From a virus (taxonomy: Duplodnaviria; Heunggongvirae; Uroviricota; Caudoviricetes), in IMG/VR virus record IMGVR_UViG_2675903661_000013, positions 1 to 4,201 of that record: a DNA stretch of 4,201 nt, one strand, 5' to 3'. The position numbers were made by a program. Of this stretch, positions 1,840 through 4,201 are shown one piece after another (positions within the stretch are counted from its first letter, which is position 1; every line of letters starts with the position of its first letter).

Positions 1840-4201
1840 TGAGCTGTTGTTCTTTTCAGCGCAGGTAACTGGCAGCTCTGCATACTTGTTATATTGCGCA
1901 TAAAAAACCGGGGAGCAGGGCGTTACTCCCCGGTAAACATACAGACCAGACAATGATACCACACTGCCAGTTATTATTATCATGACATAAGTCAGCGCAG
2001 GGAATATTAGTGCATGCACATGTCTGGTTTCTTTGATCTCACAACGCTTTTTTTGTGAAAAGAAAAAAGATGAGGCACTGAAATCACAGTTTTATTTAAA
2101 TGAGTGGACGTTGATGATTATTAAGAGTTTTAAGCTATACACCCCTGAAAAATCTGACGTGCCGGGTGCGATGTACCTGAAATCAGTAGACGGCAGGGAC
2201 TGGTACGAAAGCCAGTCATTATTCGCGGCAGACACGCTGAAGCTGGTTTATGACAGTAACGGTATAATCACCAGCATAAGTAAGGATGTCTCTATGCTGT
2301 GGCCGGTAAACCAGAGTGTGGCAGAGGTTGCAGATACGGAAGAAAACCGCAAAGCTGACATCTCGGGGCGCTGGGGTTTTGACGGGGAGAAAATCACGGA
2401 CCTGCTGACCGCGGAGAAAGCGCGCGGGATGAAGGGCGATGAAATTAACGCGTGGCGTAATGCGATGGAGGCGGCGAACTACACGTTTGAGCACAATGGC
2501 CGGAAATGGGACTACGGGAAGTCAACGCAGACGCGTCTTGAGCCATCGGTGGCGGCGGCGAAAGCGGGGAAACTGCCGGAGGCGTTTTTCTGGACGGATG
2601 CGGAAAACAATGATGTGGAGGTGACAGCAGAAGAGCTTATAGCGTTGAGTGAAGCGGCAGGGCAGGCGATGTTCACCAAAGGGATGGAAATCCACGTTCG
2701 CCAGCGCACCATGAAGAAAGAGCTGGAAAAGCTGACCAGTGCGGATGAGATACTGGCATACAGGGTTGGCTGGGCACAGGAGTAATTGGTGGAAAAGAGG
2801 GATTGTCCCTTTCTGTTTTTACTGAAAGAGTCGTAATAATTACGCAGGGAAATATCATGGCTGAACTAAACAGTTAAATTTTGATGATATTGTGATGTTG
2901 CTCAGAAATTACAGTGTAAGCAGATGTGAAATATCCAGCGGCATGAGATCAGTTTTTTATTTAGTATTGCTCTGCCTTGTGCTCCAGTATTTGGAGTAAA
3001 GGTGTAAAAAATACACTAAGATATTTCCTAAAAATTAAAATTAAATTTGTGGGGTTTTTTAGGAATATCCTCATGGGTGCCGAAATACATCAGATTTTCT
3101 TTATTCATCCGATGTATTTCGGTTTGTTTGTATACAAATAAATTCATGAGGAATCATACATGGATAAGTCTTTATCACGAAGTGTTATTTCCGTTGTTAT
3201 TGGCGGTATTTTATTTGGTGTAAGCGCTGGCGTTCTGGCTCAGGATGCAGCGGAGAATAAGCTTATCGCCTCAGGGAGTATCCCAGAAAATACAGATCTT
3301 TCTGCTTCAGCTCGCGCGGATGGAGAGATTGCGCTAGCTGTTGGTACAGGGGCCAGCGCGGATAAAAAAATTGCAACATCAGTGGGATCATGGTCTGCAG
3401 CACGAGGACAGCAAAGTGTGGCTTTAGGTGGGGGAACATATGCTTATGCAGATGCATCTACAGCCCTGGGAAGCATTGCATTTGTTGATAACACGGCTAC
3501 ATATGGCACGGCAGCAGGTAACCGAGCCAAAGTTGATAAAGATGCAACAGAAGGTACTGCGTTAGGGGCAAAGGCAACAGTAACAAATAAAAACAGTGTT
3601 GCATTAGGAGCTAATTCACGCACAACCCGTGACAATGAGGTTTATATCGGTTATGAAGCAGAGCCGGGTAAGGCTTATAAAACCCGGGTGCTTGGTGGTC
3701 TGAGTGACGGTACTCGTCCCTCAGATGCTGCAACCGTTCGTCAGGTTGACCGTGTAAAAGACAGTGTTGAGCAACTGGCTCAGGATACGAATACCCGCCT
3801 TGTGGTTGAAGCGAAAAAGTCTCGTGAATATACAGACTCCAGAACGACAGTTGGTGTTAACTCCGACGGAACCCTGACCCGTGCAGAAGGAGCCAGCAAA
3901 ACCCTGGCTGTTAATGATGGGCTTGTAGCTTTGTCCGGCAGAACAGACCGTATTGATGCTACTGTTGGTAGTGTTGACCGCCGGGTTACTAAAAATACAC
4001 AGGCGATTCAGTCCACTTCCCGTCAGTTGCAGGAGCACAACACACGTCTGAACAGTCATCAGCGTCAGATTAATGAAAACCACGAAGAGATGAAACGTGC
4101 GGCAGCCCAGAGCGCAGCGCTGGCAGGTCTTTTCCAGCCGTACAGTGTGGGTAAATTCAACGCCACTGCTGCCCTGGGGGGGTACAGTGATAAACAGGCT
4201 G

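Follow-up and report, generated by a model that had tools for sequence, protein, structure and literature searches.

The window analysed here, a stretch of 4,201 nucleotides (nt) from a tailed virus (Caudoviricetes; positions 1 to 4,201 of IMG/VR record IMGVR_UViG_2675903661_000013), forms the right-hand end of a lambdoid prophage. It contains an AT-rich tract of 374 nt (2786-3159) between the stop codon of a tfa-like gene (2785) and the ATG of an eib-type adhesin gene (3160). This tract is probably the left end of an eib cargo unit (moron) of about 2.3 kb, consisting of junction DNA followed by a control region borne by the cassette and an mRNA leader, with a weak promoter of its own. The unit would comprise, in order, the control region, the adhesin gene, an intrinsic terminator and orf156, inserted between tfa and a dinI-like gene. 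In a lysogen, eib would be transcribed from a weak, factor-dependent promoter inside the tract; control by host regulators would operate through a CRP-like box (2891-2906) and RcsB-type boxes (3017-3030 and 3060-3073), and the leader, of about 110-140 nt, would carry a stable hairpin (3080-3122), possibly with partial masking of the ribosome-binding site (RBS).

The eib cargo unit and its boundaries

On the plus strand, the window holds stf, a collagen-like side tail fibre gene (112-1842; Pfam phage_tail_N, Phage_fiber_2 and Collagen); the tfa-like gene, an orf-191 homologue annotated in relatives (2114-2785; Pfam DUF4376), which is the last conserved phage gene ahead of the cargo unit; and the trimeric autotransporter adhesin gene (3160-4201; YadA_head and YadA anchor), which continues past the window end. 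Searches with the whole window returned matches in prophages of Escherichia coli that produces Shiga toxin (STEC) and in the classical P-EibA/C/D/E prophage fragments of ECOR-9. We assign the locus to the eib type because the adhesin is 89% identical to EibG (residues 21-383 against EibG residues 151-508) and 84% identical to EibE over the common part (residues 21/47-383 for the two comparisons together), and because the downstream gene, orf156, is 99% identical to orf-156E (69% to orf-156A). YadA head repeats (PF05658) and the C-terminal anchor (NF033478), both characteristic of the Eib family, were also found in the adhesin.

A reading made from the sequence alone had described the tract as visibly richer in A and T than the flanking genes, with the run AAAATTAAAATTAAATTT at 3031-3048, and the adhesin gene as less GC-rich than stf. 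These observations were borne out by the GC profile and the codon-usage comparison. The run lies where it was placed, and GC content was 0.332 in the tract versus 0.566 in stf, 0.534 in tfa and 0.497 in the adhesin gene (chi-square of the tract against the three coding regions, p = 4e-14); at 49.7%, the adhesin gene does fall below stf in GC content, yet it is not AT-rich. When a 374-nt frame was slid along the window, the minimum of the whole window (0.318; window mean 0.509, sd 0.073) was reached with a start at 2816. A/T tracts of at least 4 nt occurred at 2.41 per 100 bp in the tract versus 0.7-1.2 in the genes. A clearer sign of the foreignness of the adhesin gene than overall GC is the GC content at third codon positions (GC3), which was 0.369 in the adhesin gene versus 0.647 in tfa (p = 1e-10) and 0.548 in stf (p = 2e-7). 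The same pattern was seen across the family, the upstream spacers having 32-39% GC and the eib genes a GC3 between 0.37 and 0.45.

The boundaries of the unit were located by comparison with phage 1720a-02, which lacks eib and whose stf-tfa region is 91-92% identical to the window and 95% identical to the closest eib prophage. Homology with this phage stops at position 2781 of the window, 4 nt ahead of the tfa stop codon, and restarts at a dinI-like gene; the interval from tfa to the dinI-like gene is 272 bp in 1720a-02 versus 2301 bp in the eib prophage. Because the break precedes the end of tfa, the tract falls inside the replaceable segment. In the closest complete genome, the genes are arranged as tape measure, J, hok/gef, stf, tfa, YadA-like protein (383 aa), a hypothetical protein of 157 aa and the dinI-like gene, followed by chromosomal btsSR.

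Among the 69 loci with enough upstream sequence, the unit made up of spacer, eib and orf156 was found behind a tfa-like gene in 64 and behind an unrelated giant LPD38 gene in five; the latter setting is a mobile element of a second type that has the same eib cassette. In these five loci (L007 1-2459, L025, L026, L091 and L094), a giant protein of about 2800 aa is encoded directly before the unit, and a gene for a serine protease autotransporter of the S6 family lies downstream. Directly after eib in the related locus L005, beyond the part covered by the window, the hairpin GACGGCAG...CTGCCG is followed by TTTTTT, and stem_loop features are annotated after the eib gene in all four GenBank records from ECOR-9 (eibA, eibC, eibD, eibE).

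The empty site in 1720a-02, the second genomic setting, the break in composition and codon usage and the terminator after eib in relatives together make it well supported that spacer, eib and orf156 form a replaceable prophage cargo unit, and the proposal of the sequence-only reading that the tract marks a separately acquired cargo cassette stands on the same evidence. The unit shows what is expected of a moron: a place between two genes that are direct neighbours in a related phage, deviating composition and codon usage, and a downstream terminator of its own. Genome annotation can draw a modest lesson from this: where a lambdoid prophage has an AT-rich gap behind tfa, the gap reliably flags a cargo cassette.

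Not all of the tract appears to travel with eib. The first 54 nt or so (2786-2839, plus strand) form a context-specific segment that is not common to the other eib lineages, family homology beginning only near 2840, and would represent junction DNA. This segment contains a weak terminator-like hairpin (2796-2812), picked up by a terminator scan, followed by CTGTTTTT.

Conservation of the tract and candidate regulatory sites

Genomes, viral contigs and metagenomes of the human gut yielded 64 distinct eib upstream regions. These fell into three deep lineages, namely the rare window type, with 2 variants, the EibC/D/E/G type and the EibA type. The lineages were 52-60% identical over 400 nt, the window type being 56-60% identical to the EibC/D/E/G type and 52% identical to the EibA type. 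Upstream regions of the window type (at least 98% identity) were present in 9 of 5426 complete E. coli genomes. To look for eib upstream regions outside E. coli, 185,579 species-representative genomes were scanned with two patterns, and there was no hit. Family homology spans 2840-3147, with 68-70% identity in the other lineages (in the EibA type only from 3017), and the flanks differ. This span would hold the control region and mRNA leader that move with eib. It begins with a distal conserved block (2840-2935, plus strand, delimited by alignments and BLAST limits), which includes the near-invariant AAATTACAGTGTAAGCAGATGTGA, and continues with a linker that is poorly conserved in the alignment (2936-3011, plus strand). 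The label of spacer, used in the sequence-only reading, undersells a region of which some 300 of the 374 nt are conserved regulatory and leader sequence borne by the cassette. The low GC content would follow from promoter and leader function added to foreign origin.

The conservation of about 300 nt, invariant blocks included, across lineages that differ by 30-48% elsewhere is hard to reconcile with a passive junction, that is, with AT-rich filler or a recombination scar across which eib is expressed by read-through of the late, Q-antiterminated stf-tfa transcript. Such an arrangement is suggested by the position of eib after the late tail operon on the same strand, and would agree with the lack of a consensus promoter in the tract and the weakness of the hairpin after tfa. 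In lambda, Q-modified polymerase ignores terminators. However, the same tract accompanies eib behind a gene that is not a tail gene. Moreover, growing cultures of uninduced lysogens produce Eib under specific conditions, with low levels in shaken culture, high levels in static stationary-phase culture at 37 °C and levels at the detection limit at 23 °C (PMC4352079, PMC5450701), and eibG cloned in a pGEM plasmid with 168 bp of upstream sequence is functional and complements a deletion (PMC13534694). We consider a passive junction very unlikely.

Returning to the preferred reading, in which the tract carries its own control region, we observed two kinds of regulator-like boxes at conserved positions. 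In the distal block, a CRP-like box, TGTGA-TGTTGC-TCAGA (2891-2906, unstranded), agrees with the consensus at 9 of 10 half-site positions. It was the sole match in the window (0.12 expected). Its position does not change between the lineages, and the EibA type has a perfect TGTGA-N6-TCACA there (local shuffle P = 0.002). In the sub-lineage of locus L008 (STEC435), 268 nt upstream of the eib ATG, the box has drifted to TGAGATTTTTCTCA, which is poor as a CRP site (2 mismatches) and is an exact RcsB box; judging from this drift, the specificity of the regulator at the distal site may differ between alleles.

Closer to the gene, TAAGATATTTCCTA (3017-3030, unstranded) is an exact match to the RcsB consensus TN(G/A)GAN4TC(T/C)NA (PMC7913699). 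It is the only exact RcsB box in the 4.2-kb window (0.14 expected), and lies at the same position in all lineages, being exact in 8 of 9 representatives and carrying 1 mismatch in the EibA type. A second RcsB-like box, TGAGGATATTCCTA (3060-3073, matched on the minus strand with 1 mismatch), lies 43 bp from the first and was found in most copies of the EibC/D/E/G type, though not in the EibA type. The two boxes flank an AT-only core containing TAAAAT (3036-3041), and together they form an inverted repeat, HP1 (3020-3069, unstranded; arms 3020-3034 and 3055-3069), which matches the position of the stem_loop annotated in GenBank upstream of eibA, eibC, eibD and eibE. As an RNA hairpin, HP1 is weak (the window fold has a z of -1.15, and across the alignment the inner stem is 42.5% paired), and we now read it rather as a pair of putative DNA sites.

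The sequence-only reading had found no convincing pair of -35 and -10 elements in the tract, and the consensus sigma-70 scan agreed. Its weak candidates for a -35, TTGATG (2881-2886) and TTGCTC (2967-2972), are located correctly, but neither has a usable -10 at the right spacing or is conserved in the other lineages, nor is there a conserved -10 partner in these; both were dropped. Positional conservation pointed instead to the -10-like hexamer TACACT (TAnnnT; 3012-3017, plus strand) as a candidate eib -10. Its T1, A2 and T6 were invariant in 21 sequences, the hexamer reading TATAGT or TAATGT elsewhere, and transcription, if this hexamer is used, would start near 3023-3025. The hexamer has no conserved -35, which suggests a factor-dependent promoter. 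The likeliest place for a promoter would be around the inverted repeat (3012-3069), with either TACACT or TAAAAT as the -10, and an eib promoter within the tract is plausible. The eib genes are reportedly trans-activated by the IbrAB island (Sandt et al. 2002), activators being said to be needed at single copy.

Leader RNA, silencing and the weighing of readings

The strongest predicted structure of the leader is the hairpin HP2 (3080-3122, plus strand; -19.1 kcal/mol), whose 16-nt arms are 94% complementary and which is followed by the U-rich run UUUGUUUGU. Its folding z was -4.46, and none of 200 shuffles reached it. Hairpins at the same place in the other lineages had z values of -3.5, -5.9 and -1.15, and with HP2 mapped onto the alignment, 72.6% of the cells were paired and 4 pairs were changed on both sides. 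We treat HP2 as real, either as a leader structure or as a leader terminator. Downstream of it, the block TTTGTATACA[A/G]ATAA[A/T]TT (3127-3144, plus strand) is invariant in all copies save the two bracketed positions; its 5' part falls in a small hairpin (3124-3130 with 3135-3141), which is the sole helix recovered by RNAalifold. The Shine-Dalgarno (SD) region follows directly (3145-3152, plus strand; GAGGA at 3148-3152).

The leader also contains a possible upstream open reading frame (uORF) of 22 codons (3073-3141, plus strand; MGAEIHQIFFIHPMYFGLFVYK, then a stop), preceded by AGGA at 3061-3064. A counterpart is present in the EibA type and none in the EibC/D/E/G type. By our own reading, the variants within the EibA type are mostly non-synonymous, and the frame shifts across the invariant block; a conserved peptide is unlikely on these grounds, and this reading was dropped. 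Because the block is kept across this shift of reading frame, it appears to be conserved as nucleotides.

In the predicted fold of the window leader (3015-3180; minimum free energy (MFE) -46.2 kcal/mol, z = -4.69), CAUGAGG (3145-3151) pairs with CCUCAUG (3069-3075) with a probability close to 1.0, in a helix that encloses HP2 and the small hairpin. Among 29 distinct leaders, the initiation region was paired in every MFE structure, each time by different sequences, and the masked element differed: for the window and EibC/D/E/G types it was the SD, paired with a probability of about 1, and for the EibA type the AUG. These predictions raise the possibility that post-transcriptional control is the main function of the tract, either through SD masking that would need to be opened by uORF translation, a small RNA or a protein, or through an attenuator formed by HP2 and its U-tract.

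Several comparisons fit such a role. The cost of opening the SD was above the shuffle mean in 7 of 7 leaders and was significant in 3 of 4 leaders of the EibC/D/E/G type (z 2.5-3.1; 2-8 of 300 shuffles), the remaining one, L007, having z 0.9 (49 of 300). After manual realignment, CCUC/GAGG of the window corresponds to CCUG/CAGG in the EibC/D/E/G type, a swap of C-G to G-C, and the window structure mapped onto the alignment paired 65.5% of the cells versus 35-49% in slid controls, with 10 pairs changed on both sides, a figure that is biased upward as the structure was derived from one aligned row. In addition, eibG mRNA rises only 3.2-fold in static culture while the protein changes far more (PMC4352079). 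This discrepancy, however, could be explained by Eib stability alone, the protein being very stable (PMC5450701). For the window itself, masking was within the range of chance: 161 of 400 shuffles reached the observed mean pairing of the initiation region, and 39 of 300 reached its SD opening cost (9.9 versus 7.6 ± 2.0 kcal/mol). The RNAalifold consensus gave neither a common HP2 nor a common closing helix across the leaders, and the uORF, as described above, is not shared by all lineages. An RNA thermometer was rejected, since the probability of SD pairing went only from 0.99 to 0.96 between 23 and 50 °C, without melting, and an Rfam scan of both window strands (E <= 1) returned no family. 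Following the shuffle controls and the negative consensus, RBS masking was downgraded from a strong claim; as modelled, it is suggestive in the other lineages and weak for the window. We regard post-transcriptional control as an unlikely main function of the tract.

Silencing by H-NS could act together with the preferred reading of a cassette-borne control region, with which it is compatible rather than exclusive. H-NS filaments would nucleate on the AT-rich tract and keep eib off, so that counter-silencing, for example by IbrAB, by RcsB with a partner or by CRP, and a temperature of 37 °C would be needed. The average GC content of E. coli is about 51%. At 33.2% GC over 374 bp, the tract is well above the genome average in AT content and, with its dense A/T tracts, would be a plausible H-NS target. 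Expression of Eib is poor and, at 23 °C, reaches only the limit of detection (PMC4352079), which fits silencing, as does the reported need for trans-activators at single copy. In addition, other autotransporters of E. coli, including the trimeric UpaG, are repressed by H-NS (PMC5012682), and BglJ-RcsB with CRP counter-silences H-NS loci (PMC3950696), RcsB- and CRP-like boxes being present here. AT-richness alone, however, does not show silencing. The high-affinity H-NS motif TCGATAAATT, which is not obligatory for binding, had no match in the tract at up to 2 mismatches, and 2 matches elsewhere in the window versus 3.0 expected. Moreover, the eib coding sequence has about 50% GC, which leaves an AT-rich target of only about 370 bp, and the literature searched contained no chromatin immunoprecipitation or hns-mutant data for any eib gene. 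Silencing of the tract, as suggested in the sequence-only reading, is plausible, and we put its probability at slightly less than even.

The preferred reading has to be set against a number of points that weigh against it. Conservation was assessed over what are effectively three independent lineages, so its statistics are thin. The consensus sigma-70 scan found no promoter in the tract, a position weight matrix scan gave only weak candidates, and no mapped eib transcription start was found in a literature search that did not cover Sandt and Hill 2000, Sandt et al. 2002 or Lu et al. 2006. TACACT and the RcsB box have one base in common, which offers another possible explanation for the invariance of the hexamer; this invariance therefore does not count as independent evidence. 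At 14 bits, the RcsB consensus is degenerate. The CRP-like box is some 125 bp upstream of the candidate start, a distance that is canonical for neither class I nor class II, and at the positions implied by its spacing (-41.5, -61.5 or a helical repeat) there is no acceptable -10. The complementation by eibG made use of a high-copy pGEM plasmid, in which read-through from the vector may occur. The terminator-like hairpin after tfa is weak (z = -0.43). The shuffle results for the window and the consensus fold given above likewise count against the proposed leader.

Beyond the preferred reading, we tentatively suggest, as a rather doubtful extension, that the eib family possesses a dedicated and previously undescribed control module. 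This module would consist of a distal CRP box, a pair of RcsB boxes around an AT-only promoter core and a translation-limiting leader of about 110-140 nt (HP2 and the TTTGTATACA-ATAA-TT block), with the pairing sequences replaced between the three lineages and the architecture kept. If true, it would explain, beyond AT-richness, why Eib is made only in static, stationary-phase culture at 37 °C. [quoted passage not shown] The approximately 300 nt of mobile control sequence, with the CRP box, the RcsB boxes, the -10-like hexamer, HP2 and the RBS-proximal block as candidate sites, provide a short list of targets.

Neighbouring features and related systems

The complete adhesin has 383 aa (counterpart at L005 10957-12108). 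It lacks the N-terminal domain (NTD) of about 130 residues, and its signal peptide differs from that of EibG. Binding of immunoglobulin should not be assumed for this Eib variant, because related Cla adhesins without the NTD do not bind IgG (PMC13534694, 2026). The orf156 gene always accompanies eib (L005 12195-12668, just past the window end; L001 2520-2993). It could be assigned to no family of Pfam or NCBIfam; the only match, to RcsC-ABL (alpha-beta-loop domain; E = 0.012), was below threshold, and its identification as a LuxR-type regulator is unsupported. A regulatory role of orf156 is worth considering given the RcsB-type boxes upstream of eib.

Several other features were observed in and around stf. 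The segment 1603-2113, which covers the last 80 or so codons of stf and the whole 271-nt gap between stf and tfa, has no counterpart at this locus in the closest relatives and was absent from the phage collection. It was found at 99.6% identity or more in the tail-fibre gene of another prophage of the same strains (in STEC1585, at 3.21 Mb versus 1.95 Mb for the eib locus), and looks like a swap of the receptor-binding tip between prophages, or an assembly chimera. The stf-tfa gap contains a strong hairpin (1903-1937) of 11 pairs, 7 of them G-C, with A6 before it on the plus strand. This hairpin is terminator-like for the minus strand (1934-1907), on which there is no obvious unit to terminate. 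Just downstream of it lies the sole sigma-70-like site of the window (ATGATA-16-TATTAT, 1953-1980). Within stf, the Phage_fiber_2 repeat is covered by an internal duplication of about 80% identity (684-791 and 1236-1343). Next to each copy is a collagen-like Gly-X-Y block, which lies ahead of the first copy (aa ~135-190) and after the second (aa ~425-505). Finally, a hairpin just upstream of the stf start (61-98; CCGCAG...CTGCGG, then T8) is probably the terminator of a hok/gef family gene, which occupies that place in a related genome (L005 7828-7968).

Known RNA thermometers that mask the RBS include ROSE and FourU. The eib leader resembles thermometers and other masking leaders in that its SD is predicted to pair with an anti-SD located upstream and that the Eib level depends on temperature, but differs from thermometers in that the predicted helix is unmelted from 23 to 50 °C, matches no Rfam family and has weak statistics in the window. 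The eib locus also resembles loci under H-NS, such as bgl and leuO, which are jointly governed by BglJ-RcsB and CRP (PMC3950696), and the autotransporter genes upaG, upaC and upaH (PMC5012682). Like these, eib has AT-rich upstream DNA and weak basal expression, together with boxes of the RcsB and CRP types and a thermoregulated surface protein; the eib boxes differ in being known from sequence alone, and the tract differs in having no H-NS nucleation motif.

With phage morons, the unit shares insertion between genes adjacent elsewhere, distinct composition and a terminator of its own, and expression from the prophage has been reported for eibG (PMC4352079). It differs in having two genes rather than one, an unusually long and conserved upstream control region, and a promoter that is only a candidate. 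The reference concept, that of Juhala and Hendrix, unlike the present unit in these respects, describes a promoter, a gene and a terminator carried as cargo between conserved phage genes, as with lom and bor of lambda.

The closest systems are the ECOR-9 prophages P-EibA/C/D/E (AF151091, AF151674-6) and eibG of LEE-negative STEC, which have the same gene order as the window: tail fibre, orf-191/tfa, AT-rich region with a stem-loop, eib, terminator stem-loop and orf-156. Their spacers are also alike in length (358-405 nt) and GC content (32-35%). The ECOR-9 work (GenBank records) had already made it known that eib genes are prophage cargo beside tail-fibre genes. The window differs in that its adhesin has no N-terminal domain and another signal peptide, and in that its upstream region belongs to a rare third lineage. 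What is new here, as judged from these comparisons, is this rare leader lineage, an Eib variant lacking the N-terminal domain, and an annotated anatomy of the upstream region with its candidate sites.

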